Counted from the stretch's first letter, positions 10,035-49,980 are shown. The stretch is DNA of 64,000 nucleotides from Bordetella parapertussis (GCA_945862265.1 CAMAXP010000008.1:543-64542), one strand, 5' to 3'. Numbers and translations are program-made. Notes: generated by a model not told the origin, from the sequence alone.

Positions 10035-12511
<2,477 letters not shown>

Positions 12512-12768
12512 GGGCCTGCATTTCAGCAGTCAGCGGCCCGTTTCCAGCCGCCAGGCAAGCGACTCGGGCAGGCCCGCCGCGCGGTCCTTCACGCACAGCG
12601 GCAATGGGGCGAGAAAGGCCTTGCCCCGGTCCGAGAGCGCGCCACGCGTGCGGAGGAGGGAAATCATAGCGGGTAAAATGCTTGTCTGTCTCGAGCTCGC
12701 CCGGGCGGCCCCGATCCTGCACCACCACTCTCATTTCCGGATTTGAAAATAACAATAGCGGAGTAGAC

Positions 12769-13731: not shown

Positions 13732-14487
13732 TTATTTCCCGAAACTGAAGGCGAGGCCCAGCCCGCGGTGCAGCGAGGCCTCCAGGAAAGGCGCCATCAG
13801 CGGCATGACCAGCACGAATGCGGCCATGCCGATGATGATGGTGGCGGGAAATCCGACAGCGAAGATGTTCAGCTGCGGCGCGGCGCGCGCAAGCACCCCC
13901 AGTGCGAGGTTCAGGATCAGCATGCTGGCGAGCACCGGCAGGGCGAGGTGCAGTCCCACCCTGAATATCTCGGCGCCAAGGAGCGCGAGGCCGTGCAGGC
14001 TGGCGGCCGATACCCCAGCCCCGCCGACCGGGATCACGCGGAAGCTCTCCGCGATCCCGGCGACCATCATCAGGTGGCCGTTGATGGCGAGGAACACCAG
14101 CATGGCCATCAGGTTCAGGAAACTCGCGATCAGCGGGGTCTCATGCGAGTTCTGCGGGTCGATGAACGAGGCGAACGACAGGCCCATCTGGAGACCTAGC
14201 AGGCTCCCTGCGATTTCGAAGGCCGCGAAGACGAGCTGCAATGCGAGGCCGATGGCGAGTCCCACCAGCAACTGCTGCACCAGCAGCCAGCCGGGCTCGC
14301 CGCTGACCGCAGGCAGCGAGGGTGCGACGATGAAGGTGACGAACGCGGCGAGCCCGATCTTCAGGCGGTGCGGGATGGCCTTGTGGTAGAGCAGCGGCGC
14401 CGAGGAGAACAGCGCGAGGACGCGTACGAACGGCCAGAAGTAAGCCGCAAACCAGACATCCAGCTGGGCGCTGGTGAACGAGATCAT
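13732..14487 (-). CDS. fliR: Flagellar export apparatus protein FliR
   Basis: Polytopic membrane protein starting MISFTSAQLDVWFAAYFWPFVRV. Last gene of the fliMNOPQR order. Confidence 0.9.
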   Translation of the reverse strand: MISFTSAQLDVWFAAYFWPFVRVLALFSSAPLLYHKAIPHRLKIGLAAFVTFIVAPSLPAVSGEPGWLLVQQLLVGLAIGLALQLVFAAFEIAGSLLGLQMGLSFASFIDPQNSHETPLIASFLNLMAMLVFLAINGHLMMVAGIAESFRVIPVGGAGVSAASLHGLALLGAEIFRVGLHLALPVLASMLILNLALGVLARAAPQLNIFAVGFPATIIIGMAAFVLVMPLMAPFLEASLHRGLGLAFSFGK

Positions 14488-14489
14488 CG

Positions 14490-14762
14490 CTAGCCGATGA
14501 CGTTGGGAATGGACGTCAGCGTGCGCTGGATGTAGTCGGTCAGCGTGGCGAGCATCCACGGCCCGGCCACGACCAGCGCGGCGACCATGGCGAGGAGCTT
14601 GGGGATGAACGACAGGGTCATCTCGTTGATCTGGGTGGCCGCCTGCAGCACGCTGACCGCGAGGCCCACCACCAGCGCGGTGACAAGCAGCGGCGCCGAG
14701 ACCATCAGCATCACCTCCAGCGCCTGCTGGCCGATGGTGAGCACGCTTTGCGAGGTCATCAT
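14490..14762 (-). CDS. fliQ: Flagellar export apparatus protein FliQ
   Basis: 90 aa, [26 protein letters not shown]... The ATGATGA overlaps the fliP stop. Confidence 0.93.
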
Positions 14763-15508
14763 CGCGCGAAACTCGCCACGAGCGAACCCACCAGCAGCGT
14801 CCAGCCGTCGGCGAGAACGAAGAGCATCAGCTTGAACGGCAGCGAGATCAGCACCGGCGAGAGCATCATCATGCCCATCGACATCAGCACGCTCGCGACC
14901 ACCATGTCGATGATCAGGAACGGGATGAACACCATGAACCCGATCTGGAACGCGGTCTTCAATTCGCTGGTGACAAAGGCCGGCACGACGATGTGGATCG
15001 GGGTGGAAGCCGCATCCTTGGGCATGGGCTCGTTGGCGAGCTTCAGGAACAGCGCCAGGTCCGGCTCGCGGGTCTGCTTCAGCATGAAGCCCTTGACCGG
15101 CGGTTCGGCGCGCACCAGCGCGTCGTTGAAGGTGATCTTGTTCTGGCTCCAAGGCAGGTAGGCGTCGACGTAGACTTTTTCCAGCACCGGGCTCATCACG
15201 TACATCGTGAGGAACAGCGCGAGCCCGACCAGCACCTGGTTGGGCGGCGTCGATTGCGTGCCGAGCGCGCTGCGCAGCAGCGACAGCACGATGATGATCC
15301 GCGTAAAGCCGGTCATCATCAGCAGCACCGCCGGCAGGAAGGTCAACGCGGTCAGCGCAACCAGTGTCTGGATCGACAGCGTGTACGACTGCCCGCCGCC
15401 CGGCGCGGGCGAGCTGCTGAATGCGGGCAGGCCCTGCGCCAGCGCTTCGGGCGCGAACGACGCCAGCGCGAGCAGGATGAACAGCAGGAGGGCCTTCGCC
15501 TTACGCAC
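14759..15508 (-). CDS. fliP: Flagellar export apparatus protein FliP
   Basis: Signal peptide plus the conserved [23 protein letters not shown]...PPNQVL motifs. Confidence 0.95.
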
Positions 15509-15836
15509 GGTTTATCGCCTTCTTCAGGAGAGCGGAAAAATCGATTCCCATGGGAGATGCAGCAACGCCTGCCGGTGCCTCGGGCAGTTCACCCTTGGGC
15601 AGGGTCGCGAGCGCGCTGACGCGGCCGGGGGCCACGCCGAGCACCATCCACTGGGTGCCCACCTCGACAATCACCACGCGTTCCTTGGCGCCGACGGAGA
15701 GCGCCGAAACGACCTTGAGCAGCCGCGCGCTGCCTCCCGCGCTCGCGCCCATGCGGCGCGCGAACCACGCCGAAGCCGCGATCGCGCCGAGCACGACCGC
15801 AAGGCCGGCCATCATCTGCAGGAGGCTGCCGCTCAT
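15501..15836 (-). CDS. fliO: Flagellar biosynthesis protein FliO
   Basis: 111 aa with a single N-terminal TM segment. Positioned between fliN and fliP. Confidence 0.75.
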
Positions 15837-15842
15837 CTTGGA

Positions 15843-16262
15843 TCAGCGGTTGAGTTTGCGGATGCGCTCGGACGGCGTGATGATGTCCGTGAGGCGGATG
15901 CCGAACTTCTCGTTGACCACGACCACCTCGCCCTGGGCGATCAGGCAGCCGTTGACCAGCACGTCCATCGGTTCGCCGGCGAGGCCGTCCAGCTCGACCA
16001 CGCTGCCCTGCGCCAGCTGCAGGATGTGCTTGATGGGAATCTTCGTGCGCCCCAGCTCCACGGTGAGCTGCACCGGGATGTCGAGGATCATGTCGATGTC
16101 GTGGTTCGCGTTGGCGCTGCCCGTCGGCGAGAGCTTCTCGAAGATCGGTGCGGCGTCGCCCGCGGGTGCGCCGCCGGCCTGGGCCTGCTCGGCGAGCGCC
16201 GCGCCCCAGTCGTCGGCCGCGTCGTCCTGGTGCGCCGGTTGTTCCTGGACTGCGTTTTCCAT
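15843..16262 (-). CDS. fliN: Flagellar motor switch protein FliN
   Basis: C-terminal SpoA/FliN domain (DIPVQLTVELGRTKIPIKHILQL...VNGCLIAQGEVVVV). The start was taken at MENAVQ, just after the fliM stop. Confidence 0.9.
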   Translation of the reverse strand: MENAVQEQPAHQDDAADDWGAALAEQAQAGGAPAGDAAPIFEKLSPTGSANANHDIDMILDIPVQLTVELGRTKIPIKHILQLAQGSVVELDGLAGEPMDVLVNGCLIAQGEVVVVNEKFGIRLTDIITPSERIRKLNR

Positions 16263-16264
16263 CA

Positions 16265-17275
16265 CTAATCTCCCAGCAGGTTGTCTTGCTGGCGGACCGC
16301 AAGGATGCGATCCACCTTGATTGCGTACTGCGCGTTCTGCGTTCCGTAGGTGCACTCGAACACCGGCACGCCGTCGACTTCCGCGACCACGGTCTTAGGG
16401 ATGTCGGTGCCGATCACGTCGCCGACCTTCATCGACAGGAGCTGCTCCACCGTCGACGGGATGCGCGCGAACTGCGCCACCAGCTCCACGTCGGCCAGCT
16501 GCACCTGCTTGGAGAGCATCCTCACCCAGCGCTTGTCGGGTTCGTAGCTGTCACCTTGCAGGGATGAATACAGCATGTCGCGGATCGGCTCGATCATCGA
16601 GTACGGCAGCACGATGTGCAGCTGGCCACCCGACTGGCCGATCTCGATGTTGAACGTCGCCGTGACCACGATCTCGGAGGGGGTGGCGATATTGGCGAAC
16701 TGGGTGTGCATCTCCGAGCGCACGTGCTCGAATTTCACCGGGTAGATCGTTTCCCAGGACTTCTCGTAGTACTCGAACACGACGCCGAGCATGCGCTGGA
16801 TGATGCGCTGCTCGGTGAGCGTGAAGTCGCGACCCTCGACGCGGCTGTGGAAGCGCCCGTCGCCGCCGAACATGTTGTCCACCACCGCGAACACCAGGCT
16901 CGGGTCGAAGATGAACAGGCACGAGCCGCGCAGTGGCTTCATGTGCACAACGTTCAGGTTGGTCGGCACCACCAGGTTGCGGATGAACTCGGAGTACTTG
17001 ACCACCTTCACCGGGCTCACCGAGATTTCCGGGCTGCGCCGCATGAAGTTGAACATCCCGATCCTCAGGAGTCGCGCAAACCGGTCGTTGATGATCTCGA
17101 GCGTCGGCATGCGGCCGCGCACGATGCGCTCCTGCTTGCCGAGGTTGCCCCACAGCCAGGAGCCCACGACCAGGGCGACCAGCAGCGCGGCGCCGAGCAT
17201 GAAGCCCAGCTTGTTGCGGCCGGGCATCTGGCCGAAGCCTTGGGCAAGGGAGGCAACGTCGACTGCATTGGCCAT
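16265..17275 (-). CDS. fliM: FliM-like switch protein carrying a FliF-like N-terminus (apparent fliF'-'fliM in-frame deletion hybrid)
   Basis: From about aa 47 (QERIVRGRMPTLEIINDRFARLLR...) it is collinear with FliM. The first ~42 aa (MPGRNKLGFMLGAALLVALVVGSWLW) look like the FliF N-terminal TM region. The CheY-P binding LSQxEIDALL motif is absent. Confidence 0.85.
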   Translation of the reverse strand: MANAVDVASLAQGFGQMPGRNKLGFMLGAALLVALVVGSWLWGNLGKQERIVRGRMPTLEIINDRFARLLRIGMFNFMRRSPEISVSPVKVVKYSEFIRNLVVPTNLNVVHMKPLRGSCLFIFDPSLVFAVVDNMFGGDGRFHSRVEGRDFTLTEQRIIQRMLGVVFEYYEKSWETIYPVKFEHVRSEMHTQFANIATPSEIVVTATFNIEIGQSGGQLHIVLPYSMIEPIRDMLYSSLQGDSYEPDKRWVRMLSKQVQLADVELVAQFARIPSTVEQLLSMKVGDVIGTDIPKTVVAEVDGVPVFECTYGTQNAQYAIKVDRILAVRQQDNLLGD

Positions 17276-17452
17276 GCACTTTCTCCGGAAACAATGCGGG
17301 TCCCGCTCTGTGCGGAACCTACGGAGAGAAGTATGCGGAGGGCTTGAGCGTCGCCATGCGCGAATAAGCCCTGCTTTTCCCGCCTATTTCAGGGGTGGCC
17401 GGGCGGGGGCGGCTGCTAAGCTGGGCACCAGTTCACATCCCAGGACGGTGCC

Positions 17453-17749
17453 ATGGACCCGATCTCGTTCAACCCCAATGTGCTCATGCCCGGCAAGGTC
17501 GCGGCAGCGGGCGTGGCGCCCGCGGGCGACGGGTTTTCCTCCGTGCTCAAGCAGGCCCTCGACGGGGTGAATTCGCAGCAGAAGGCGGCGGCAGGGCTGG
17601 CACGCGAATTCCAGCTCGACAACACCAACGTGAGCCTCGAAGAAACCATGGTGGCGATGCAGAAGGCCAACATCTCGTTCCAGGCCGTGGTGCAGGTCAG
17701 GAACAAGCTCGTGTCGGCCTACCAGGACATCATGAACATGCCGGTCTAG
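17453..17749 (+). CDS. fliE: Flagellar hook-basal body complex protein FliE
   Basis: 98 aa ending in the conserved FQAVVQVRNKLVSAYQDIMNMPV. Divergent from the fliF-derived start at 17275. Confidence 0.9.
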   Translation: MDPISFNPNVLMPGKVAAAGVAPAGDGFSSVLKQALDGVNSQQKAAAGLAREFQLDNTNVSLEETMVAMQKANISFQAVVQVRNKLVSAYQDIMNMPV

Positions 17750-18489
17750 GTCCTCAGGCGCCGGTCGCGCTCCTTCTGGGCGATGTAGCGCGAGATCAGG
17801 GATTCCATGTCGCGCTCGAGCCCCGCGAACCTGCACCCGATCCTCACCTGGCGGGCGCCATTGCGGGCGCGCACTTCGCAGACGTTCTTGACCTCGATGT
17901 CGAGCGCGAGGACGCCGAGCGTACCGAGCCCCATCCGGCAGTTCTGCAGGATTTCGCCGGGCGCGAATTTCACGTAGGTCTTGTCGGTGATCAGCGCCAC
18001 GCCGCCGAGCGACAGGTCGGACACCCGCATTTCCAGCACGCGCACCTTGCCTTCGCATTCCACTGCCGCCTCGCAGGTGAGGCTGGCCGGCACCCGGTAA
18101 TAGTCCCTGCGCTGCAGGCGCAGCACGAGGTCGGGCAGGCGCATGCGCAGGGCCGGGTGTCCTTCGAACACGGTCGGGTCCGCGCCGCGCGAACTGAACT
18201 GGACCTTGATGCCGTCGATGTTCGCCGCCAGGGTCACCCGTTCGGCCTGCATCACCCTGCGGTTGCTCTCCGCCTCCCGGCCGCAATCGAATACGATCTC
18301 CTCGTAGTCCGGGTTTACCGCGAGGAGCACGGTCAGCGCATGGGTCTCGCCATCGACGCTCAGTGTGACCTGCTCGCGCTTCGCCTCCAGCCGGCGCAGG
18401 ATGGAGATGATCTCGAATCGGTCGTGGACGAGGAATCGCTCGAAATCCTCCTCGGCGAGTTCCGGGCCACGCAGGGTGCTGGTTGTCAT
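17746..18489 (-). CDS. ycgR: Flagellar brake protein YcgR (PilZN + PilZ c-di-GMP receptor)
   Basis: RLQRRDYYRV...DLSLGGVAL matches the PilZ RxxxR / D-x-S-x-x-G motifs. The start was taken at MTTSTLRG. Confidence 0.8.
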   Translation of the reverse strand: MTTSTLRGPELAEEDFERFLVHDRFEIISILRRLEAKREQVTLSVDGETHALTVLLAVNPDYEEIVFDCGREAESNRRVMQAERVTLAANIDGIKVQFSSRGADPTVFEGHPALRMRLPDLVLRLQRRDYYRVPASLTCEAAVECEGKVRVLEMRVSDLSLGGVALITDKTYVKFAPGEILQNCRMGLGTLGVLALDIEVKNVCEVRARNGARQVRIGCRFAGLERDMESLISRYIAQKERDRRLRT

Positions 18490-18779
18490 TCGGCTTCCTC
18501 CTTCATTCCGGACTCGATGCGATGCAGCCACGCGAGCAGCTCGGCCACCGCCACATACAGTTCGGGCGGGATGTGGCGGTCGAGGTCGACCTGCATCAGC
18601 AACCCGACGAGTTCGCGGGATTCGTGCACGTACACCCCGGCGTCGCGGGCGCGCCGGATGATTTCATCCGCGATCAGCCCGCGCCCCTTGGCGGACACGC
18701 GCGGGGCGCCCTTCCCGCCGGGGTAGGCGAGCGCGACCGCGGAGCGGGCCGGGTCAGCGGTGCTTTGGAAGTGCGCCAT
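18486..18779 (-). CDS. Stand-alone FlhB C-terminal-domain-like protein (EscU/YscU/HrcU family)
   Basis: About 97 aa, AVALAYPGGKGAPRVSAKGRGLIADEIIRRARDAGVYVHESRELVGLL...IPPELYVAVAELLAWL, typical of the small FlhB-domain proteins found downstream of fliK-like genes. Confidence 0.75.
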   Translation of the reverse strand: MAHFQSTADPARSAVALAYPGGKGAPRVSAKGRGLIADEIIRRARDAGVYVHESRELVGLLMQVDLDRHIPPELYVAVAELLAWLHRIESGMKEEAE

Positions 18780-19521
18780 GATCGACCCTGGCTTCCGCCA
18801 GCGTGAGTCCCTGCTGGCCCAGCGAGTGGGCGAGATCGCCGCGTGCGTCGAGAATCCTGCCTGCACTGGCCTGGTCGGCGGCGTGGATCGCGAGCCGCGC
18901 CTGTCGCCCACTGAGCGCCACGCGGGCCTCGATTTCGCCCAGCCCGGGCATGGTCAGGCGCAGCGACGCCTGCCAGGCCGGGGCTGCGTCAAGGGTCGTG
19001 CCATCGCTGTGCGGCTCTTCCTCTGCAATGCGTACTTCCACCGGCTGTCCGGGCCAGGCCTGGCCCTGCCACAGCGCCGCGCGGTTCTCCAGCACGTCGA
19101 GCTGGCGCTGTACCAGGGTTTCCGCCTGTGGCGCGAGCGGCGAATGCGGCGCGGCCGGCCGCGCCAGCGCAGCCTGGGGTTCGCGCAGCAGGCTTTCCTT
19201 TGCGCCCGCACCGTCCACCCAGTCGGCGAGGTGCGATTCGTAGAAGAGCCCGCTCGTGCCGATCGCGACCCTGAGCCCGGCCGCGACCCGGGCTGCATTG
19301 CCGGGCTGGTCCGACAGCGGCACCGGCGTGGTGATGGCTGCGAACTCCCCGCCATCAGCTGCGGCCGATGTGGCGAGGCGCGAGAGCATCTGCGCGGTGG
19401 AGCCCAGCTCCAGGTCCACAGCGGGCTCGCTCGAGAGGAGCAGCGCCGTGGCCTCCCGCCGCTCGGGAACCCACTGCGCCATGGCCTGGGCGCGCAAAAG
19501 TGAGATGGCCTCGCCGTTCAC
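18754..19521 (-). CDS. Flagellar hook-length control (FliK-like) protein, short form
   Basis: 255 aa with a C-terminal Flg_hook-like segment (LRLTMPGLGEIEARVALSGRQARLAIHA...LGQQGLTLAE). GTG start overlapping the fliT stop. Confidence 0.6.
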   Translation of the reverse strand: MNGEAISLLRAQAMAQWVPERREATALLLSSEPAVDLELGSTAQMLSRLATSAAADGGEFAAITTPVPLSDQPGNAARVAAGLRVAIGTSGLFYESHLADWVDGAGAKESLLREPQAALARPAAPHSPLAPQAETLVQRQLDVLENRAALWQGQAWPGQPVEVRIAEEEPHSDGTTLDAAPAWQASLRLTMPGLGEIEARVALSGRQARLAIHAADQASAGRILDARGDLAHSLGQQGLTLAEARVDHGALPKHR

Positions 19522-19853
19522 GGCTGGCTACCGTAACTCTCGCCGAGCCTGCGATGGTTTTCCGAGGTCGCCAGCGTGTCCTGCAGACGCATCATCCACG
19601 GTTCGGCGAGATCGCGGATCTGCGCGTCGTCCGACAGCATCTTGCGCAGCAGGACGAGCTTGCGGGCGCGCTCGGCCGCAGAGAGGTTGGCCTGCGCGCG
19701 GGTCTGCAGGTCCGCGACCAGGTCGCGGCAGCGCTTCTCTTCCGCAATGAAGCGGTCCCAGTCGCTCTCCCTGGCAGCGCCGAGCATCTGGCCGGAGATC
19801 TCGGCCATGGCCTCGTAACCGGCAAGCGGATCACGTTCGATGCCTGCGGTCAC
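19518..19853 (-). CDS. fliT: Flagellar chaperone FliT-like protein
   Basis: 111 aa and predicted helical. Sits after fliS, and its GTG start at 19853 overlaps the fliS stop (GTGA). Confidence 0.55.
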   Translation of the reverse strand: MTAGIERDPLAGYEAMAEISGQMLGAARESDWDRFIAEEKRCRDLVADLQTRAQANLSAAERARKLVLLRKMLSDDAQIRDLAEPWMMRLQDTLATSENHRRLGESYGSQP

Positions 19854-22747: not shown

Positions 22748-23929
22748 TTAGCCGCGGAGCAGCGCGAGCACCGAGTTCGGCAGCGAGTTCGCCTGGGCGA
22801 GCATCGCGGTACCGGCCTGCTGCAGGATGTTGGCGCGGGTCAGCGAGGCCGAGGCGGCCGCGTAGTCCGTGTCCTGGATCGCCGATTGCGCGGCGGTCAG
22901 GTTTTGCGAGGTGCTCTGCGCGTTCGAGGCTGCAGTCGTCAGGCGGTTCTGCACCGCGCCGATCGTCGCACGCTCGTTGCTGAAGTAGTCCAGCGCGCCG
23001 TCGACCTGCGACATCAGGGCCGTCGCGTTGGTCTGCGAGGAGGTGCCCGTGAAGTTCGTGATTGCGGTGGCAAGTGCGGCGAGCGAGCCGGCGGACGAGA
23101 CACGCATGTCGGCGAACGACAGGCTGACCTGGTCGCTGGCGGTCGTGCCGGCGCCGACCTGCAGCGTGACGGCGCCCGAGCCTGCGGTGGTCTTGATGGT
23201 GTTGGTGTCGATTGCGGCACCGATCAGGTCGGAGGTGTCGCCGGCCACCGAGGAGAGCGAGAACTTCACGCCGAGTTGGTCGAAGTTGAGCGTCCTCGTG
23301 CTGTTGGCGGCCACACCGCCCACGAACGCGACCGTCTGGCTCACGGTGCCGTCGCTCAGGGTCAGCGCGTTGTCGCCGGCGGTGTACGCGGCGATCGTGA
23401 ACGTCTTGCCACCCTTGGCCGCCGAGACGTCGATCGAGGTCACCGAAGCGGCGCCGGCGGCGAAGCCCGTGCCGATCGTGCCGGTGACGTCGAGGGTCGT
23501 GGACAGCGCGCCGGTGAGCAGGCTCTGGCCGTTGAACTTGGTGCTGTTGCCGATCGCGTCCATCTCGGTCTTGAGCTGGCCGACTTCCGTTGCGATGTAG
23601 CCGCGGTCGGTGTCGGAGATCGTGCCGTTGGCGGCCTGCGTGCCCAGTTCCTTCATGCGCTGGAGCATGTTCTGGATCTGGCTCATCCCGCCTTCAGCGG
23701 TCTGCAGCATCGAGATGCCGTCGTTGGCGTTGCGCACGGCCTGGTTCAGGCTCGAGACCTGGGCGGACATCCGCTGGGACACCGCTAGGCCGGCCGCGTC
23801 GTCTTTGGCCGAGTTGATGCGCAGGCCGGAGGACAGCTGGGCCATCGCGTTGGTCTGCGCGCCCTGGGATTTCGTGAGGTTGAACTGCGCCATCAGCGAG
23901 TTCATGTTGGTGTTGATGGACATTGTCAT
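22748..23929 (-). CDS. fliC: Flagellin
   Basis: MTMSINTNMNSLMAQFNLTKSQ...LSSGLRINSAKDDAAGLA and C-terminal ILQQAGTAMLAQANSLPNSVLALLRG. Confidence 0.95.
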   Translation of the reverse strand: MTMSINTNMNSLMAQFNLTKSQGAQTNAMAQLSSGLRINSAKDDAAGLAVSQRMSAQVSSLNQAVRNANDGISMLQTAEGGMSQIQNMLQRMKELGTQAANGTISDTDRGYIATEVGQLKTEMDAIGNSTKFNGQSLLTGALSTTLDVTGTIGTGFAAGAASVTSIDVSAAKGGKTFTIAAYTAGDNALTLSDGTVSQTVAFVGGVAANSTRTLNFDQLGVKFSLSSVAGDTSDLIGAAIDTNTIKTTAGSGAVTLQVGAGTTASDQVSLSFADMRVSSAGSLAALATAITNFTGTSSQTNATALMSQVDGALDYFSNERATIGAVQNRLTTAASNAQSTSQNLTAAQSAIQDTDYAAASASLTRANILQQAGTAMLAQANSLPNSVLALLRG

Positions 23930-24045
23930 TTTGAAATCTCCTGAAGCGTTGGTTGGCTGATTCCGGCCCGGGGGAGGGTTCCGGTGACTTTGGTTCTCCC
24001 CGTCTGATCCGTTTGAGGACGAGATTTGAACCGCCGTTGAGGGCC

Positions 24046-24073
24046 TTATCGGGCTCCCCTCCGGAAAACTTTA
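24046..24073 (-). promoter_or_regulatory. Putative sigma-28 (FliA) class III promoter of fliC
   Basis: The minus strand reads CTAAAGTTTTCCGGAGGGGAGCCCGATAAG, compared with the consensus TAAAGTTT-N11-GCCGATAA. It lies about 120 nt upstream of the fliC ATG. Confidence 0.55.
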
Positions 24074-24316
24074 GCCCCCTGTGACTTTCCCAGCGCTGTG
24101 CACGAGAGGCAGGTTAGCAACGCGCAGCCCTCGCCCAGTGGCTGATAAGAGGGAGGAACGGGCGCCTATTCCGCACGGTAGTCCGGCTGACGTAAGAAGA
24201 CTTCCTACAAAATTTTCAGCGTTTTCCTGATTGTCGGACCCGCCCGGCGGGCAGAAGATTCGGGCGTACCAAGAAACAACCAGTCAACGCTGATTCTTTT
24301 ACTTCGGGGGAAGAAA

Positions 24317-24631
24317 ATGAATACGGAAACGATGCTCGACGAAATCCGCGACGCCAACCTCACCTACCTGATGCTGGCCCAGGCCCTGATCCGCAAGGAC
24401 CGCGCGCAGGCCCTGTTCCGCCTCGGACTGTCCGAGGAAGTCGCCGACGTGGTGGCCGGCCTTTCCGCCGCGCAGATCCTCAAGATTGCCGCGTCCAATA
24501 TGGTGATGTGCCGGTTCCGGTTCGACGACCAGGTGGTCTGGAACCTGCTGACCAGCCATGGCCGCGACAAGGAAGTGTCGGGTGTGCACGCGGCGATCCT
24601 CATGGCCGGCCGACTCGCGCAAGCCGCCTAA
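24317..24631 (+). CDS. flhD: Flagellar master regulator FlhD
   Basis: LDEIRDANLTYLMLAQALIRKD...AASNMVMCRFRFDD is the FlhD signature. Confidence 0.93.
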   Translation: MNTETMLDEIRDANLTYLMLAQALIRKDRAQALFRLGLSEEVADVVAGLSAAQILKIAASNMVMCRFRFDDQVVWNLLTSHGRDKEVSGVHAAILMAGRLAQAA

Positions 24632-25170
24632 TGGCAAAGGGAAAGAGCATCGTCGGCGAAAGCCGCGACATCGGCAGGGCGGTCGAGCTGATCAAGCTGG
24701 GCGCCCGCCTGCAGGTCCTCGAGTCGGAGACCAGGCTTTCGCGCGAGCGATTGCTGCGCCTCTATAAGGAAGTGCAGGGCAAGTCGCCACCCAAGGGCAT
24801 GCTGCCGTTCTCGACCGACTGGTTCATGACCTGGCAGCCGAACGTCCACAGCTCGCTTTTCATGAACATCTACAGCTTTCTCGACAAGACTACCGAACTC
24901 GATGAAATCGACGCGATCATCAAGGCCTACCAGTTGTACCTGGAGCAGGCCGGTTCGCATGGCCTGGAGACCGTGTTGTCGGTGACCCGGGCCTGGCGCC
25001 TGGTGAAGTTCTTCGATGCGGGCATGCTGACGACCGTGCCGTGTACCAAGTGCGGTGGCCACTTCGTGGCCCACACGATGGACCTGCACGACCATTTCGT
25101 CTGCGGCCTGTGCAACATGCCTTCCCGCGCCGGCAAGACCCGCGCGGCGGCGGAAAGACGGGCTGCTTAG
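24631..25170 (+). CDS. flhC: Flagellar master regulator FlhC
   Basis: KSIVGESRDIGRAVELIKLGARLQVLESET... plus a C-terminal Cys4 zinc site (CTKCGGHFV...VCGLC). TAATG overlap with flhD. Confidence 0.93.
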   Translation: MAKGKSIVGESRDIGRAVELIKLGARLQVLESETRLSRERLLRLYKEVQGKSPPKGMLPFSTDWFMTWQPNVHSSLFMNIYSFLDKTTELDEIDAIIKAYQLYLEQAGSHGLETVLSVTRAWRLVKFFDAGMLTTVPCTKCGGHFVAHTMDLHDHFVCGLCNMPSRAGKTRAAAERRAA

Positions 25171-25376
25171 CCAGACAGGATCTCCCCTCAAGCTTTTCAA
25201 GTAGTTGCGGTGCAAGCTGTTTGCAGTAGCGGTAGTTCTTCAATAGGCACCCGGTCCAGCCGGCAGACAGCCGGCGGGCGGGGGCCCGGTTTTTTCCCGG
25301 CCGTCCCGCCTTCCGCCTCAAGAGTTCCGGATTCGTGCCGTCAATCAAGGCACAAGCACTCGCGGGACCAAAAGCC

Positions 25377-26339
25377 ATGCTGATCATCATTGGATACCTC
25401 ATCGTCATCGGGTCCGTCTTCGGGGGGTATGCGCTGGCGGGCGGGCACCTGGCTGCGCTGATGCAGCCGCTCGAGCTGCTCATGATCGGCGGCGCCGCGG
25501 TGGGCGCGTTCCTGGTCGGCAATCCCGTGAAGACGCTCAAGGCGACCTTCAAGGCACTGCCGTCGATGCTGAAGGGCTCCAAGTACACCAAGGCGCTGTA
25601 CATGGAGCTGATGGCACTGCTCTACGAAATCCTCACCAAGGTGAGGAAGGAAGGGCTGATGTCGATCGAGGGGGACATCGAGGCGGTGCATGAGAGCCCC
25701 CTGTTCAACAAGTACCCGGACATCGTTGCCGACCACCACCTCGTCGAGTTCCTGACCGACTACCTGCGCCTGATCGTCTCGGGGAACCTGAACCCGATGG
25801 AGATCGAGAACCTGATGGACAACGAGATCGACACGCACCACCACGAAGGCAACATCCCGGCCCAGGCGATCCAGAAGGTCGGCGACGGCCTGCCCGCGTT
25901 CGGCATCGTCGCGGCGGTGATGGGTGTGGTGCACACCATGGGCTCGGTGGGCCTGGACACGACCAACATCCGCTTTCTCGTGGTGGACGATTTCTCCACC
26001 ATGCGCCGCATCGTGAGGAACCTCCTCAAGGAGATCGGCCACGCCAACGTAGACGAGGCCGAGGACGGCCAGGTTGCGCTGAACAAGCTGAAGGCGAATG
26101 CCTTCGACTTCGTCGTGTCGGACATCAACATGCCGAACATGAACGGCTTCGAGCTGCTGCGCAACATCCGCGAGGACGTGGCCCTGAAGAAGCTGCCGGT
26201 GCTGCTGGTGACGGCCGAAGCCAAGAAGGAGGACATCATCCTTGCCGCGCAGATCGGCGCGTCCGGCTATATCGTCAAACCCTTCACCAAGGCGACCCTC
26301 GAAGAGAAACTCGCCAAGATCCTCGCAAAGGCAGCCTGA
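25377..26339 (+). CDS. Hybrid ORF: MotA N-terminal ~190 aa fused in frame to an essentially complete CheY receiver domain
   Basis: aa 1-192 match MotA ([25 protein letters not shown]...[17 protein letters not shown]). From [22 protein letters not shown]...[11 protein letters not shown]...[10 protein letters not shown]...[19 protein letters not shown] the sequence is CheY. MotA TM3/TM4 are missing. Confidence 0.85.
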
Positions 26340-26340
26340 C

Positions 26341-26811
26341 ATGGGCAATGCAGCCGAATTGGATGACCTCGAGGCCCTGTTCGACCAGGTGGCCGCCGAG
26401 ACCCGCGCAGCGCAGGCCGTCCCTGCGCCCGTGACCGAATCCGTCCCTGCCACCGGCGCCGCGCCAGCCAACGAATCCGCTCATGATATTTGCGCAGTCC
26501 CCACCGTTGCACCGGGCGAGGATCAAATCTTCCACCGGGTCGGCCACCTCACTCGCACGCTGCACGATGCGCTGCGGGAACTGGGCTACGACCGCAATCT
26601 CGAGAGCGCCGTGCAGGGCCTGCCTGACGCGCGTGACCGGCTCAATTACATTGCCACCCTGACCGGCCAGGCCGCTGACCGTGCCCTGTCGGCGGTCGAG
26701 TATGGGCAGGAAATCCAGAAGGCCCAGCTGGGCGTGACCGAATCGCGCATCTGCCAGTTGCATACCCAGGCGGTGGCGCGCCTGCGCACCAGGATGAAGG
26801 AGTGGTCGTGA
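26341..26811 (+). CDS. Hybrid ORF: CheZ N-terminal ~120 aa fused in frame to the last ~30 aa of sigma-28 FliA
   Basis: IFHRVGHLTRTLHDALRELGYD...LPDARDRLNYIATLTGQAADRALSAVE matches CheZ. The C-terminal LGVTESRICQLHTQAVARLRTRMKEW matches the FliA region 4.2 HTH end. Confidence 0.72.
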   Translation: MGNAAELDDLEALFDQVAAETRAAQAVPAPVTESVPATGAAPANESAHDICAVPTVAPGEDQIFHRVGHLTRTLHDALRELGYDRNLESAVQGLPDARDRLNYIATLTGQAADRALSAVEYGQEIQKAQLGVTESRICQLHTQAVARLRTRMKEWS

Positions 26812-26812
26812 G

Positions 26813-27988
26813 ATGGCACTGATCGGGTTGGCGTCGCTCGCGCGCATGGCCTTTTCCGGCGCGGACCTCGCGCCGATCGGGGCGCAGCTGCTTGCTCGCG
26901 CGGCCGAGGATCCGGAGGATGCCGATGCGCTGATGGACATGTCCGCCGTGCTGCACCTGCGCGGCAATCGAGACCTGGGGCTCGCGCTTCAGGCGCAGGC
27001 GCTGGACCTGCGGCAGGTGTACCGCGTCGGCACAGGCGAGGGGCTGAAGGTCCTGGTGCTGGTCAGCCCGGGCGACCTGGCCGAGAACAACGTGCTGGAG
27101 TTCCTGCTCGAAGAATCGAGCGTTACGCTCGAGATGCTGTATGTGTCGATCGACCTCCCGCTGCCTTCGCCGTTGCCGGAACATGACCTCGCCTTCGTCG
27201 CCGTGTGCGAGACGGACCTCAACCGGCCGCTGCTCAGGCACCTGGAAGGCGTGCTGGCGCACTGGCCGCACCCGGTGCTCAACCGCCCGGGGCGGATTGC
27301 GCGGCTCTCGCGCGATGGCGCTTGCGCCGTACTGGGGGCGGTGCCTGGGGCGTACATCCCGACCACCGTGCGGGTCGATCGCACCGCGCTGGCGCGGATA
27401 GGCGAAGGCGCGTCGATCAAGGCCTTCTTCGGAGGCGGTTACCCGGTCATCGCCCGGCCCGTCGATTCGCACAAGGGGCAGGGGCTCGCCAGGCTGGAAG
27501 ATCCAGCGTCGGTGCTCGACTACCTGGTCGATCGTCCAGAAACCTTCTTCTACCTGTCGCCCTTCGTTGACTACCAGTGCGCCGACGGGCAGTACCGGAA
27601 ATACCGAATCGTCTTCATCGAAGGGCGCCCTTACGCCTGCCACATGGCGATCTCGTCCAACTGGATGGTGCACTACATGAGCGCGGGCATGGCCGCGAGC
27701 GCCACCAAGCGCGCCGAGGAACAGCGCTTCATGGAGGACTTCGATATCCATTTCGCGTTGCGGCACCGCGAGGCCCTGGCCGCGCTGAGCGACCGGCTCG
27801 GACTGGAGTATGTCGGGATCGACTGCGGGGAGACGCCGGAAGGCAAGCTGCTGATCTTCGAAGTCGACAGCGGCATGACGGTGCACGCGATGGACGGGGT
27901 GGATGTGTTCCCGTACAAGCAGGTGCAGATGAAGAAGGTGTTCCGGGCGTTCCGGGAGATGCTCGAAGCCCGCCTCAGTCGCCCTTGA
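26813..27988 (+). CDS. ATP-grasp (RimK/glutathione-synthetase-like) domain protein with helical N-terminal region
   Basis: The C-terminal half (PVIARPVDSHKGQGL...YRKYRIVFIEGRPYACHMAIS...EYVGIDCGE..GKLLIFEVDSGM) resembles ATP-grasp ligases. Confidence 0.65.
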   Translation: MALIGLASLARMAFSGADLAPIGAQLLARAAEDPEDADALMDMSAVLHLRGNRDLGLALQAQALDLRQVYRVGTGEGLKVLVLVSPGDLAENNVLEFLLEESSVTLEMLYVSIDLPLPSPLPEHDLAFVAVCETDLNRPLLRHLEGVLAHWPHPVLNRPGRIARLSRDGACAVLGAVPGAYIPTTVRVDRTALARIGEGASIKAFFGGGYPVIARPVDSHKGQGLARLEDPASVLDYLVDRPETFFYLSPFVDYQCADGQYRKYRIVFIEGRPYACHMAISSNWMVHYMSAGMAASATKRAEEQRFMEDFDIHFALRHREALAALSDRLGLEYVGIDCGETPEGKLLIFEVDSGMTVHAMDGVDVFPYKQVQMKKVFRAFREMLEARLSRP

Positions 27989-28016
27989 CCGAGGCGGCCC
28001 ACCGGCGTTGACCGGG

Positions 28017-30602
28017 TTAAGCCAGTGCCTTGCCGACGATCTCGGCCACGTCGCGCGACAGCCCGTCCGTGCCCAGCACCCGCTCCAGCGCCGCCTTGGC
28101 GTGGGCCTGGCGGCCCGCATCGAATTTCCTCCAGCGGTCAAAGCACCGGGCGACGCGCGCGGCGACCTGCGGATTCAGGGTGTCGATGGCGATGACCTGG
28201 TCGGCGGCAAAGGCATAGCCGCCGCCGTCGGCCGCGTGGAAGCGCACATGGTTGGCGGCGACGAACGCGCGGATCAGCGAATAAATCTTGTTCGGGTTCT
28301 TGATGTCGAACGCCGGGTGCGCGGTGAGCCGCTTCACTTCGGCCAGCGTCCCGGGCAGGCGCGCGGTGGCCTGCACGGCGAGCCACTTGTCCACCACCAG
28401 CGGCTCGTCCTTCCAGCGCGCATGGAAGGACTCCAGCGCCGGTGCGCGCTCCGCACAGTCGGTGTTGGCCAGCAGCGTCAATGCCGCCATCGCATCGGTC
28501 ATGTTGTCGGCGGTTTCGAACTGCTTCACGCACAGCGCGCGGACTTCGGCGTCGTCGAGTTCCATCAACACGCCGAGGCATAGGTTCTTCAGCGAGCGCT
28601 TGCCTGCGGAGGTCGAGTCGGGCGAGTAGGGGGCGTCGATCGTCATCGAGCGGTAGGTGGCGAGCAATTCCACGCGCAGCGCGCCGGCCAGCTGGCGGCG
28701 CAGGCCGTTCCTCGCAGCGTGCAGCGCGTCGGGATCCACCACATCCATCTGCTCGGCAAGCGTGGTTTCCGAAGGCAGGCCAAGGGCTTCGCTCGCGAAC
28801 GCGGGGTCCTGCGCCGCATCCTTCAGCACGCGCGCCCATGCATCGATGAACGAGCGCGGGGCGGCCTTGGTGCCGCCGAGCAAGAGGCCGGTAGCGAGGC
28901 GCTGTCCTGCTTCCCAGCGGTTGAAGGCGTCCGAATCGTGCGCCATCAGGTGCGCAAGTTCCGCCTCCGTGTACGGGTACTTCGCAATCACTGGCGCGGA
29001 AAAGCCGCGCAGGATCGAGGGAACGGGTTTCGCCGGGATATCCTCGAAGACGATCTTTTCTTCGGCGGTCTTGAGCGACACCAGTCGCGAGGCGAAGTCC
29101 GTTCCGTCCGGCCCGACAAGGCCGACGGCGAACGGGATGTGGAAGGGAAGCTTCTCGGGTTGCCCCGGCGTGGGCGGGCAGGACTGCTTGACCGTGAGTG
29201 TGTAGCGCTTGGCGGTCTCGTCGTACTCGCCGGAGATGTCGAGCATCGGCGTGCCGGCCTGGTCGTACCAGCGCTTGAACTGGGTGAGGTCGATGCCCGA
29301 GGCGTCCTGCATGGCGGCGACGAAATCGTCCGTGGTCACCGCCTGGCCGTCGTGGCGTTCGAAGTAAAGGTCCATCCCCTTGCGAAAGAGGTCCGGCCCG
29401 AGCAGCGTGTGCTGCATGCGCACGACTTCGGCGCCTTTCTCGTACACGGTCATCGTGTAGAAGTTGCGGATCTCCATGTACGACTGCGGCCGCACCGGGT
29501 GGGCCATCGGGCCCGCGTCCTCGGGGAACTGCGCGCTGCGCAGGCCACGCACCTCCTGGATGCGCTGCACCGGGCGCGAGTACATGTCCGCGCCGTACTC
29601 CTGGTCGCGGAACACCGTGAGGCCTTCCTTGAGCGAGAGCTGGAACCAGTCGCGGCAGGTCACGCGGTCGCCGGTCCAGTTGTGGAAGTACTCGTGCGCG
29701 ACCACGCGGTCGATGTTCTGGTAGTCGATGTCGGTCGCCACGTCGGGGCGCGCCAGCACGTACTTGGTGTTGAAGATGTTGAGGCCCTTGTTCTCCATCG
29801 CGCCGGAGTTGAAGTCGCCTACCGCCACGATCATGTACTGGTCGAGATCGAGTTCGAGGCCGTACACCTCCTCGTCCCACTTCATCGAGCTCTTGAGGCA
29901 CTGCATCGCGAAGCCGCTCTGGTCGAGCTTGCCGGGTTCCACGTAGATCGCGAGCCGCGCCTGCCGGCCGGACTTGGTGACGAAAGCGTCCTCGAGCATC
30001 TCGAGCTTGGCCGCGACCATCGCAAACAGGTACGAGGGCTTGGGGTGCGGGTCGACGAATTTCGCCCAGTGACGCCCGCCGCGCTGCTCGCCCGAGCCGA
30101 CCAGGTTGCCGTTGGACAGCAGCACCGGGTACTTCTCCTTGTTGGCGCGCACGGTGACGGTGTACTTCGCCATCACGTCCGGGCGGTCGAGGAACCAGGT
30201 GATGCGGCGAAAGCCCTGGGCCTCGCATTGCGTCACGAAGCCCGCCTTGGTGGCGTAGAGGCCTTCGAGGTTCGTGTTCTTCTGCGGGACGATGACAACG
30301 ACCGTCTCGAGCTTGAAAGTGTCGGGCACCGCAGGGATCGTCAGCCGCTCGGCTTCAACCATGTAGCTTTCCGGCGCGAGCTTCTTCCCGTCGATCGCGA
30401 TCGACTGCAGCTCGAGTTCGTCACCGTTCAGCACCAGCGGGGCCGAGGAATCGGCGGCATCCGGGTTGCGGTTCAACATCAGTCGCGCGCGCACGATGGC
30501 ATCTTCCTCGCGGATCTCGATTTCGAGTTCGACGGTCGAGACCAGGAACGCGGGCGGCGTGTAGTCCTTGAGATGGATGGTCTTGGGCGTGGGTTCGCGC
30601 AT
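28017..30602 (-). CDS. pepN: Aminopeptidase N
   Basis: 861 aa with GAMENKGLNIF and the HEYFHNWTGDRVTCRDWFQLSLKEG zinc motif (HExxH-18-E). Confidence 0.95.
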   Translation of the reverse strand: MREPTPKTIHLKDYTPPAFLVSTVELEIEIREEDAIVRARLMLNRNPDAADSSAPLVLNGDELELQSIAIDGKKLAPESYMVEAERLTIPAVPDTFKLETVVVIVPQKNTNLEGLYATKAGFVTQCEAQGFRRITWFLDRPDVMAKYTVTVRANKEKYPVLLSNGNLVGSGEQRGGRHWAKFVDPHPKPSYLFAMVAAKLEMLEDAFVTKSGRQARLAIYVEPGKLDQSGFAMQCLKSSMKWDEEVYGLELDLDQYMIVAVGDFNSGAMENKGLNIFNTKYVLARPDVATDIDYQNIDRVVAHEYFHNWTGDRVTCRDWFQLSLKEGLTVFRDQEYGADMYSRPVQRIQEVRGLRSAQFPEDAGPMAHPVRPQSYMEIRNFYTMTVYEKGAEVVRMQHTLLGPDLFRKGMDLYFERHDGQAVTTDDFVAAMQDASGIDLTQFKRWYDQAGTPMLDISGEYDETAKRYTLTVKQSCPPTPGQPEKLPFHIPFAVGLVGPDGTDFASRLVSLKTAEEKIVFEDIPAKPVPSILRGFSAPVIAKYPYTEAELAHLMAHDSDAFNRWEAGQRLATGLLLGGTKAAPRSFIDAWARVLKDAAQDPAFASEALGLPSETTLAEQMDVVDPDALHAARNGLRRQLAGALRVELLATYRSMTIDAPYSPDSTSAGKRSLKNLCLGVLMELDDAEVRALCVKQFETADNMTDAMAALTLLANTDCAERAPALESFHARWKDEPLVVDKWLAVQATARLPGTLAEVKRLTAHPAFDIKNPNKIYSLIRAFVAANHVRFHAADGGGYAFAADQVIAIDTLNPQVAARVARCFDRWRKFDAGRQAHAKAALERVLGTDGLSRDVAEIVGKALA

Positions 30603-37717: not shown

Positions 37718-40700
37718 TCAGTTCCCGCGTTCGGCGAGAAACTCCGCCAGCACCCGCGCCGTGTGGGATTGCGCCGGGGTCGCGGCCAGCGCCTCGGGTG
37801 AGGCCTGCGCCACCACCTTGCCCCCGGCATCGCCGCCTTCGGGGCCGAGGTCGATGATCCAGTCGGCTTCGGCCATGATGTCGAGGTTGTGCTCGATCAC
37901 CACGACGCTGTTGCCTGAATCGACAAGGCGATGCAGCACGTGGATCAGTTTTTCCACGTCGGCCATGTGCAGGCCGACCGTGGGCTCGTCGAGCACGTAG
38001 AGCGTGTGCGCGAGTTCACCCGCGCGGCCCGGGCGGGCGAGGGCGTTGCCGTTGGCGTCGATGCGCACCTTCGAAAGTTCGGTCACCAGCTTGATGCGCT
38101 GGGCCTCACCGCCGGAGAGCGTCGGGCTCTGCTGGCCGAGCGTGAGGTAGCCGAGGCCCACGTCCTGCATCAGGCGCAGCGCATGGTGGATCGAGGTGTG
38201 CGCCGCGAAGAACTCCACGCCCTCGTCGATGTTCATCGCAAGGATGTCGCCGATGGATTTGTCGCGCCACTTGACCGACAGCGTCTCGGCGTTGAAGCGC
38301 TGGCCGTTGCAGACGTCGCAAAGCACGCGCACATCCGGCAGGAACGACATCTCGATGCGTTGCACCCCCTGGCCTTCGCAGGCCTCGCAGCGGCCGCCTT
38401 TGGTGTTGAACGAGAAGCGGCTGGCGGTCCAGCCGCGCATGCGGGACTCGTTCGCCTCGGCAAAGATGCGGCGGATCGAGTCCCAGAAACCCACATAGGT
38501 CGCAGGGCACGAGCGCGGCGTCTTGCCGATCGGGGTCTGGTCGACCTCGAGCACGCGGCCCACGCCCTCGGCCCCCTTGAGGGTCTTGCAGCCCTTGAGC
38601 GGGACGTCGGATTTCGCCCGCCGCTCCGCCACCAGCTTGGCGAGGTTCGTGTGCAGCACGTCGCGCGCGAGCGTGGACTTGCCCGAGCCGGACACGCCCG
38701 TGACGACAGTCAGGCGGCCCAGCGGCACGCGCGCACTGACGTTCCTGAGGTTGTGCAGGGTGGCGCCGCCGATTTCGATCGACGGCGTGGACTTGGCGAC
38801 CGCGCGGCGCGGGTGGATCGGGTGGCGCAGCGGCGACTTGAGGAACCGTCCGGTGAGCGACTCGGGGTTGGCCATCAGGTCGTCAGCTGAGCCTTCGGCA
38901 ATCACGCGGCCGCCGAGGCGTCCGGCGCCGGGGCCGAGATCCAGGACATGGTGTGCGCGGCGGATCGTGTCCTCGTCGTGCTCCACCACCACCAGCGTGT
39001 TGCCCTTGGCCTCGAGCTTCTCCAGCACGTCGAGCAGGATCCTGTTGTCGCGCGGGTGCAGGCCGATGGTCGGTTCGTCGAGGATGTAGCACACGCCGCG
39101 CAGGTTTGAACCCAACTGCGCCGCAAGGCGAATGCGTTGCGCCTCGCCGCCCGAAAGCGTCGGCGCGGAGCGGTCGAGCGACAGGTAGCCGAGGCCGACC
39201 TCTTCGAGGAAGCCGAGGCGCGAGCGCAACTCGGCGAGCAGGTCGCGCGCGATCTCCTCGTCGCGGCCCGCGAGCTTCATGTCCTTCACGATTGCGCGGA
39301 TCTTGCCTACCGACAGCGCGGTGAAGTCGGCAATCGAACGGTCGTGGTAACGCACGGCGAGGGCCTCGGTGTTCAGGCGCTTGCCGTCGCAGGTGGGGCA
39401 GGCTTCCTCCACCTCCAGCCATTCGAGCCAGGAGTCGAGCACGTGGTCTTCGGTGCCGCTCTTCTCGCGCTCGGCGTCCCAGTCGATGCCGGTGAGCTTC
39501 AAGCCGGTGCCGTAGCAGGTGGCGCACCAGCCGTGCTTGGAGTTGAACGAGAAGAGGCGCGGGTCGAGCTCCGCGAAGCTGCGCGCGCACGAAGGGCAGG
39601 CGCGCTTGGTGGAGAAGACCTGCTGGTGCAGTTGCATCTCGACGAGCGGGGCCTTGGACTTGGACGCAGCCTTCACCAGCGCGTCGAGGTCCGACAGCAC
39701 GTGCACTACGCCCTTGCCGAACTCGAGCGCCTTGGCGAGTTCGCGCCTCAGCATCGCTTCGTTCTCGGCTGTGACCCGCAGGTCGGACACTGGCAGTTCC
39801 AGCGTGTGTTCCTTGAAGCGGTCGAGGCGCGGCCAGGCGGCGGTGGACATGAACTCGCCGTCGACGCGCAGGTGCGTGTAGCCCTTGCCGCGCGCCCACT
39901 TGGCGAGGTCGGTGTAGAAGCCTTTGCGGTTCATCACCAGCGGCGCGAGCAGGCCGATGCGCTGGCCCTTGTAGTCGCGCATTAGGCGGGCCACGATCGC
40001 GTCCTCGGTCTGCGGCTCGATCGGCACGTCGCAGTCGGGGCAGTACTGCGTGCCGAGCTTCACGTACATCAGCCGCAGGAAATGGTAGATCTCGGTGAGC
40101 GTGGCCACCGTGGACTTGCGCCCGCCGCGGCTGGTGCGCTGCTCGATCGCCACCGTGGGCGGGATGCCGAAGATCGCGTCCACGTCCGGCCGGGCCGCGG
40201 GCTGCACGAACTGGCGGGCGTAGGCGTTCAGCGATTCGAGATAGCGGCGCTGGCCCTCGGCAAAGATGATGTCGAACGCGAGCGTCGACTTGCCCGAGCC
40301 CGACACGCCGGTGACCACGGTGAACCGGCCGCGCGGGATCTCGACGTCGATGTTCTTGAGGTTGTGTTCACGGGCATTGTGAATGCTGATGTTGTTCGAC
40401 AGCAGCCGGGTCTGCAGCGGCATTTCGCGCAGGATCCCGGAGGTGGCCGGGTTGGTCAGCGCCTCTTCGTAAGCCTTGAGGGCCACGCCCGTGTGCGAGG
40501 CGGGGTTGGTCGCGATGTCGAGCGGCGTGCCGACCGCGACGATCATGCCGCCGGCTTCGCCGCCTTCGGGCCCGAGGTCGATGATCCAGTCGGAAGCCGA
40601 GATGACGTCTAGGTTGTGTTCGATCACCACCAGCGAGTGGCCGGCGCCGAGCAGCTGGCGGAACGCGCGCAGGAGCTTGGCCACGTCGTCGAAATGCAGG

Positions 40701-45293: not shown

Positions 45294-45309
45294 CCGGGAT
45301 GGGCGGCGC

Positions 45310-46557: not shown

Positions 46558-46566
46558 GCGACCACG

Positions 46567-49976
<3,410 letters not shown>

Positions 49977-49980
<4 letters not shown>

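Follow-up and report, generated by a model that had tools for sequence, protein, structure and literature searches.

Is a reading frame that starts as one flagellar-locus gene and ends as another a gene in its own right, or is it what a deletion leaves behind? This question is raised by the open reading frame (ORF) at 26341-26811 (+) of the DNA analysed here, a stretch of 64,000 nucleotides that we refer to as the window. An earlier note had described this ORF as an in-frame hybrid of cheZ and fliA left by a single deletion that removed flhB, flhA, flhF, flhG and most of fliA, the gene of sigma-28. The hybrid is confirmed by profile matches and by comparing its DNA with intact contigs from the same species, and conspecific gene order together with blastn alignments supports a single deletion. 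We consider it highly probable that the ORF is the scar of an 8,547-bp deletion produced by one illegitimate-recombination event, rather than an independently functioning gene.

Composition of the hybrid reading frame

The ORF comprises 156 codons encoding 156 amino acids: CheZ codons 1-129 are joined in frame to FliA codons 212-238, and the frame closes at the native fliA stop. Single nucleotides separate the ORF from its neighbours: one between the stop of the ORF before it and its ATG, and one between its stop and the ATG of the gene that follows. The parts are as follows (L014 and L031 are intact contigs described in the next section).

26341..26727 (+): cheZ', CheZ codons 1-129, the N-terminal region and first bundle helix; 99.4% DNA identity to intact cheZ of L014 (10001-10387), with Pfam and NCBIfam CheZ matches
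26727..26728 (+): junction 2, a 2-bp microhomology, GC, shared by cheZ (CAG/C) and fliA (GTG/C), marking the 8,547-bp deletion; placed by three-way alignment of the window, L014 and L031, with blastn segments that overlap by 2 bp
26728..26811 (+): 'fliA, FliA codons 212-238 and the stop, covering the turn and recognition helix of region 4.2 and the C-terminus; 99.3% DNA identity to L031 from position 990; PRK06986 positions 209-239 of 241

The first part is recognisably CheZ. Homology to the conserved N-terminal helix of the CheZ four-helix bundle was found with Pfam PF04344 (E=6.4e-23, 82.1 bits against a cut-off of 30.7; hybrid residues 62-137, profile positions 2-76 of 203), and the NCBIfam CheZ profile PRK11166 aligned to residues 59-128 over its positions 15-84 of 217, at 90 bits against a cut-off of 257. 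Over residues 1-129 the hybrid shares 98% identity with the complete 258-aa CheZ of the same species (P0001) and carries one private substitution, H121Y. The end of the protein matched the NCBIfam FliA profile PRK06986 (E=2.6e-8; residues 124-155, positions 209-239 of 241) at 34 bits against a cut-off of 201, and Pfam Sigma70_r4 aligned over positions 29-49 of 50 at 19.9 bits, under its gathering score of 24.1. All 27 residues of this part, LGVTESRICQLHTQAVARLRTRMKEWS, are the same as the C-terminus of the conspecific 238-aa FliA, a member of the sigma-28 family (PRK06986, TIGR02479; PDB 6PMI, 9WSF), and they align to the extreme C-terminus, the end of region 4.2, of the solved FliA structures.

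What the hybrid lacks is equally clear. Its residues 61-126 align only to residues 15-80 of E. coli CheZ (PDB 1KMI chain Z), whereas the intact conspecific CheZ aligns to residues 15-214; compared with the E. coli protein, everything past the equivalent of about residue 83 is gone, including the second bundle helix and the CheY-binding peptide. E. coli Asp143 and Gln147 correspond to D189 and Q193 of intact P0001 in the alignment to 1KMI_Z, past the breakpoint of the hybrid, which therefore has neither of these catalytic residues of the second bundle helix; the catalytic role of Gln147 has been described (PMC3035606). The intact P0001 C-terminus, ...AQVDDLLESLGF, aligns with the C-terminus of 1KMI_Z, and in the hybrid this CheY-binding end is replaced by FliA sequence. 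On the FliA side, sigma regions 2 and 3 (core binding and -10 recognition) are absent, whereas intact conspecific FliA has Sigma70_r2, r3 and r4; the helix-turn-helix of region 4.2 is also incomplete, since the break at codon 211/212 falls within ...EIAAV/LGVTESR.... Relative to sigma-28, the hybrid is thus without regions 2, 3 and 4.1 and the first helix of the 4.2 helix-turn-helix, 211 of 238 residues. Of the CheZ hairpin the hybrid keeps only the first helix, and of sigma region 4.2 only the last. Because the catalytic Asp and Gln, the CheY-binding tail and sigma regions 2-3 are all absent, the hybrid protein, if made at all, is most likely inert, a dead remnant that would act neither as a phosphatase nor as a sigma factor.

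These boundaries refine the earlier note, which had named both parts correctly. It gave CheZ as residues 1 to about 120, where the CheZ part extends to residue 129, and it assigned about 30 residues to the region 4.2 helix-turn-helix and C-terminus of FliA, where the extent is the last 27, which align perfectly to conspecific FliA. It put the junction at nt ~26700-26725, and the exact position is 26727/26728; the absence of the CheZ catalytic helix and CheY-binding peptide, as it had stated, is borne out by the alignment confined to 1KMI_Z 15-80.

Intact loci of the same species and three deletions

The undeleted allele is carried by L014 (GCA_945878445.1 contig 6), and we used L014 and L031, which belong to the same metagenome-assembled genome (MAG), as the intact reference; the two are bridged by a 149-nt identical overlap, and this join was checked with L029 (1,614 nt, 100%) and L028. 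The gene order of L014 (lengths in amino acids in brackets) is fliK-like, fliT, fliS, fliD, flaG and fliC, and then flhD, flhC, motA (289), motB (318), cheV (313), cheY (128), cheZ (258), cheA (578), orf56, flhB (383), flhA (688), flhF (442) and flhG. The right-hand contigs, which were found by looking up the TctB protein of the window, continue in intact form (L031, L028, L029) with flhF, flhG (274), fliA (238), 1 nt, the same 391-aa gene that follows the hybrid, pepN and tctCBA. Complete 258-aa CheZ (P0001) was located on 8-9 contigs by a search of a large protein collection, and the conspecific intact contigs are 98-99.4% identical to the window in DNA.

Blastn of window positions 24000-28200 against the intact loci returned colinear blocks of 98.6-99.4% identity that overlap by 2 bp at each join. 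Window 25954-26728 corresponds to L014 9614-10388 (cheY-cheZ, 99.4%), and 26727-28200 corresponds to L031 990-2463 (the 3' end of fliA and the downstream gene, 99.3%); exactly 8,547 bp present in the conspecific contigs are missing between them, L014-coordinate 10388-18934. In the three-way alignment at the join, cheZ reads ...AAGGCCCAGC/AGGCT..., fliA reads ...GCGGCGGTGC/TGGGCGTGACC..., and the window reads ...AAGGCCCAGCTGGGCGTGACC.... Both parent genes are therefore intact and colinear in close relatives, and the flanks meet with no inserted bases. No longer repeat or mobile element was seen at the breakpoints in the sequences displayed.

Against this reference, the order that the earlier note had given for related Burkholderiales (cheZ, flhB, flhA, flhF, flhG, fliA) is kept, except that the stretch from cheZ to flhB also contains cheA (578 aa) and a 56-aa ORF, both of which the deletion took as well; its deletion size of 6-7 kb was too small, the measured value being 8,547 bp. 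It had also raised the possibility of intact cheZ and fliA in the exact context of the hybrid in relatives, and what relatives have instead is complete cheZ and fliA 8.5 kb apart. The second fliA, flhA or flhB that it suggested looking for did not turn up in the 64-kb window by tblastn. With all 19 proteins of the intact regions as queries, none of the deleted genes was found a second time in the window; besides the retained fragments, the hits were weak paralogues only, CheV against the cheY region (26% identity) and FlhB against a native 97-aa FlhB-C-terminal-like gene (38%).

The same comparison revealed two more hybrids. The ORF directly upstream of cheZ'-'fliA, at 25377-26339 (+), is a second in-frame hybrid, MotA(1-193)::CheY(2-128), with NCBIfam matches to MotA positions 1-198 of 282 and CheY positions 4-126 of 129. 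A third, of 336 aa, lies at 16265-17275 (-) and joins FliF(1-43) to FliM(38-330). Their parts, together with the genes that anchor the cluster, are listed here.

24317..25170 (+): flhD and flhC, intact flagellar master regulator genes, left anchor; Pfam and NCBIfam matches over their cut-offs and no private substitutions
25377..25955 (+): motA', MotA codons 1-193, through the third membrane helix; TIGR03818 positions 1-198 of 282; 98.6% identity to L014 up to 7372
25954..25955 (+), join 25955/25956: junction 1, a 2-bp microhomology, TG (end of motA codon 193 and the TG of the cheY ATG); three-way alignment and L014 gene content
25956..26339 (+): 'cheY, CheY codons 2-128 and the stop, complete except for Met1; PRK10610 at 202.5 bits (cut-off 189); 99.2% amino acid identity to intact CheY
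26813..27988 (+): 391-aa gene with a weak RimK/ATP-grasp NCBIfam match (E=1.6e-4), right anchor of deletion 2; ATG 1 nt past the fliA stop in deleted and intact strains
17147..17275 (-): fliF', FliF codons 1-43, the N-terminus and first membrane helix; 43 of 43 residues the same as intact FliF, and the intact 526-aa fliF starts at the same distance from fliE
17146..17147 (-): junction 3, a 2-bp microhomology, CA on the coding strand, marking a 6,904-bp deletion; DNA comparison with intact contigs
16265..17146 (-): 'fliM, FliM codons 38-330; 100% identity to L043 20027-20420; Pfam FliM and FliMN_C matches

Deletion 1 removed 2,243 bp, comprising the 3' end of motA, motB, cheV and the ATG of cheY, and the break on its right side hits the start codon of cheY exactly. 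Deletion 3 removed 6,904 bp: fliF from codon 44, fliG, fliH, fliI, fliJ, fliK, fliL and fliM codons 1-37. Seven intact contigs carry fliE followed by fliF, fliG, fliH, fliI, fliJ, fliK (400), fliL and fliM (330), where the window has fliE and then the hybrid, with fliN-R downstream of it. The FliF::FliM hybrid has lost the FliM N-terminal segment LSQEEVDALL, which we take to be the motif that binds phosphorylated CheY. All three joins are in frame, each on a 2-bp microhomology (TG at junction 1, GC at junction 2, CA at junction 3), and 17,694 bp (17.7 kb) are gone in total.

Several neighbouring genes deserve comment. The 391-aa gene at 26813-27988 had no Pfam match; its homologues, at 46-59% identity, come from Gemmatimonadota, Nitrosomonadales and Spirochaetia MAGs, and because these are unrelated phyla the gene is probably not flagellar. 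The nearest genus-level relative (L052) has neither fliA nor an ATP-grasp-like gene beside pepN, so that adjacency is specific to the species of the window. The species encodes two proteins with a FliK hook-length domain: a retained one of 242 aa beside fliT (window 18486-19482, -), accompanied by the 97-aa FlhB-C-terminal-like gene, and the 400-aa FliK of the fliF operon (L043 18090-19292), deleted in the clone. In its right half, the window contains unrelated genes, among them a UvrA-like protein of ~1,887-1,889 aa at 37718-43387 (-), about twice the length of standard UvrA, with UvrA DNA-binding, interaction and ABC domains, and a type I secretion set at 43929-49980 (+), made up of an outer-membrane efflux protein, an HlyD-family adaptor and a C39-peptidase ABC exporter that is unusually long at 1,137 aa.

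We envisage the following course of events. The ancestor would have carried the order flhDC, motA, motB, cheV, cheY, cheZ, cheA, orf56, flhB, flhA, flhF, flhG, fliA, the ATP-grasp-like gene and pepN. One illegitimate-recombination event would then have joined cheZ codon 129/130 to fliA codon 211/212 via the 2-bp GC, and as the two genes would happen to share a frame at these points, a single 156-codon ORF ending at the native fliA stop would have resulted. Two further deletions of the same type would have produced motA::cheY and fliF::fliM in the same clone. Each join shows 2 bp of identity without any inserted base, and the breakpoint sequences displayed contain neither repeats nor mobile elements; from this we infer that illegitimate (microhomology-mediated) recombination lies behind all three.

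Reading frame, transcription and authenticity of the junctions

Three in-frame joins out of three have a chance of 1/27 if frames are random, a calculation that leaves room for selection on the frames. Selection could have acted if ribosomes needed to keep translating through motA'-'cheY and cheZ'-'fliA into the 391-aa gene, whether for translational coupling or for protection from polarity after the upstream promoters were deleted, or if a hybrid had gained a use, for example as a membrane-anchored CheY. The layout of the genes is compatible with this: the TGA stop of cheY is followed after 1 nt by the cheZ ATG, the TGA of fliA is followed after 1 nt by the ATP-grasp ATG, in deleted and intact strains alike, and the gene that would benefit is, as noted above, probably non-flagellar. 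CheY is moreover complete from codon 2, at 99.2% identity, with the break exactly at the start codon.

Nevertheless, a probability of 1/27 is weak, and the fliF'-'fliM hybrid is in frame without any downstream non-flagellar gene to protect, as fliN-R follow it. H121Y, one of the few private substitutions of the clone, sits within the cheZ remnant. In E. coli, the topologies of MotA and FliF are such that CheY placed after the third MotA helix, or FliM placed after the first FliF helix, would face the periplasm. Transcription also bears on this reading, and two promoter-like sites were noted around the cluster.

25318..25344 (+): candidate sigma-28-type promoter TCAA-N15-GCCGTCAA, 33 nt upstream of the motA ATG, with 3 mismatches to TAAA-N15-GCCGATAA; weak evidence
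24046-24072 (-): sigma-28-like motif AAAGTTTT-N11-CCCGATAA upstream of fliC; weak evidence

Both contain CCGGA in the spacer, and the number of sigma-28 motifs over the whole window was not above chance; a sigma-70 promoter scan of 23900-28100 found none. A terminator-like hairpin follows flhC. Since the sole promoter-like site before motA is sigma-28-like and this hairpin lies upstream, the arrangement weakly suggests that the hybrids may not be transcribed in a clone that has lost FliA, which argues against a frame kept open for translation. If the frames were nonetheless selected, the scars would serve as functional elements of an operon rewired in a freshwater lineage that had only just lost motility; we regard this as improbable, and continue to read the three ORFs as deletion scars.

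That these scars exist in cells, and were not created by mis-joining or by the collapse of reads from a mixed population, is indicated by their recurrence. Junction-spanning 40-mers for all three joins were found in the ENA assemblies ERZ27280278, ERZ27280263 and ERZ27280265 and in the Logan assemblies ERR3719153, ERR3719154 and ERR3719160; the cheZ::fliA 40-mer occurs in L001-L005, L021, L026, L036, L037 and L042, from these six assemblies. The ENA and Logan assemblies may derive from the same runs, so that the independent samples number at least three, maybe fewer than six and possibly within one study. The source datasets are presumably freshwater-lake metagenome studies, judging from sample names and general knowledge. 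Contigs that bear the junctions are 99.94-100% identical to the window and thus represent one clone; those that cover more than one junction have those junctions together, and no contig was found with only one or two of the three deletions.

The ENA series that yielded the deleted forms also contains intact alleles (ERZ27280309, ERZ27280286, ERZ27280192), as do other datasets, so mixtures of strains are plausible, a point in favour of faulty assembly. The same three junctions were nevertheless recovered base for base in six assemblies from two pipelines, an assembler working at k=141 cannot be misled by a 2-bp identity, and a single private haplotype, 100% identical between assemblies, extends over both flanks of each junction. 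The window sequence is present, in addition, in an NCBI record with a 113,937-bp contig. An assembly artefact is therefore very unlikely.

The hybrid is rare among its relatives. In the CheZ cluster at 90% identity, which has 41 members, the 15 members listed comprise 13 proteins of 258 aa, one of 109 aa and the 156-aa hybrid, which is the only fusion among them. This distribution, the presence of complete cheZ and fliA in more distant relatives, and above all the truncated profile matches of the hybrid, whose halves are fragments of complete conserved genes (CheZ stopping at position 84 of 217, FliA starting at 209 of 241), refute the idea that the short form is ancestral and that intact strains gained the 8.5-kb block by insertion, which has in its favour the formal symmetry of an insertion/deletion difference alone and which we consider the least credible of all. 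Outside the species, the nearest PepN is 83% identical, and the lake MAGs L011, L053 and L060 have genes only 47-72% identical to those of the Burkholderiales species of the window.

Consequences for motility and the age of the loss

Together, the three deletions removed FlhA and FlhB (export gate), FliF and FliG (MS ring and rotor), FliH, FliI and FliJ (export ATPase complex), FliK, FliL, MotB (stator partner), CheA, CheV, FlhF, FlhG and sigma-28 (FliA). Neither a basal body nor an export apparatus can be made without FlhA, FlhB, FliF, FliG, FliH, FliI and FliJ; there is no stator without MotB, no phosphorylation of CheY without CheA and no class-III transcription without FliA. Judging from the genes lost in the window, the clone would be unable to build or rotate a flagellum.

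The loss of these genes is recent and preceded any general decay of the genes retained. Between fliE and motA, a distance of 8.5 kb, six intact contigs match the window at 98.0-99.4% identity, within the diversity of the species itself, and the retained flagellar genes contain only eight window-private substitutions in ~3,000 codons; it is because of this small number and this level of identity that we regard the deletions as recent. Four of the eight are non-synonymous (FliE E26D, the fliT start ATG>GTG, FliD A453T and CheZ' H121Y) and four are synonymous. The fliT gene (19518-19853, -) starts with GTG in the deletion clone versus ATG in nine intact contigs, and all retained flagellar genes keep full-length ORFs. 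Four non-synonymous against four synonymous private changes, too few to gauge relaxed selection on the retained genes, indicate only that the deletions are recent. In other strains, gene calls had pointed to further decay, with flhC seemingly absent from L015, cheA split in L016 and cheV truncated in L019. All three proved to be runs of N in the scaffolds (L015 6709-6808, L016 around 4540, L019 458-467), that is, assembly gaps and not pseudogenes.

Flagellar pseudogenes and deletions are familiar from Shigella, Yersinia pestis, Burkholderia mallei and Bordetella pertussis. That motility is lost when flagellar genes, the flagellar sigma factor among them, are deleted or inactivated is ordinary and well documented; the present case is unusually well resolved and involves no new family or mechanism. 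A close parallel is experimentally evolved Campylobacter jejuni, in which deletion of rpoN (sigma-54) led to irreversible loss of flagellar motility (PMC7677240). In both cases a flagellar sigma factor and essential flagellar genes were deleted while much of the regulon was left, and a non-motile variant arose inside a motile species. Unlike the Campylobacter case, the clone described here comes from uncultured lake populations, not from a laboratory line or host-restricted pathogen; it lost sigma-28 rather than sigma-54, and it has three deletions resolved to the base, each with a 2-bp microhomology and each an in-frame fusion.

For annotation, 25377-26339, 26341-26811 and 16265-17275 should be recorded as fusion pseudogenes and not as MotA/CheY, CheZ or FliM; for 26341-26811 this label follows from the absence of the defining features of both CheZ and FliA. 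The caution matters most for 16265-17275, which a gene caller or Pfam would call a normal FliM. More broadly, the locus offers a natural snapshot of gene loss under way in one uncultured freshwater Burkholderiales species, most strains of which have a complete flagellar and chemotaxis locus. It could help to show by what steps, and in which order, a costly organelle is given up in nature, and allow a polymorphism of motile and non-motile forms to be followed through lake time series.
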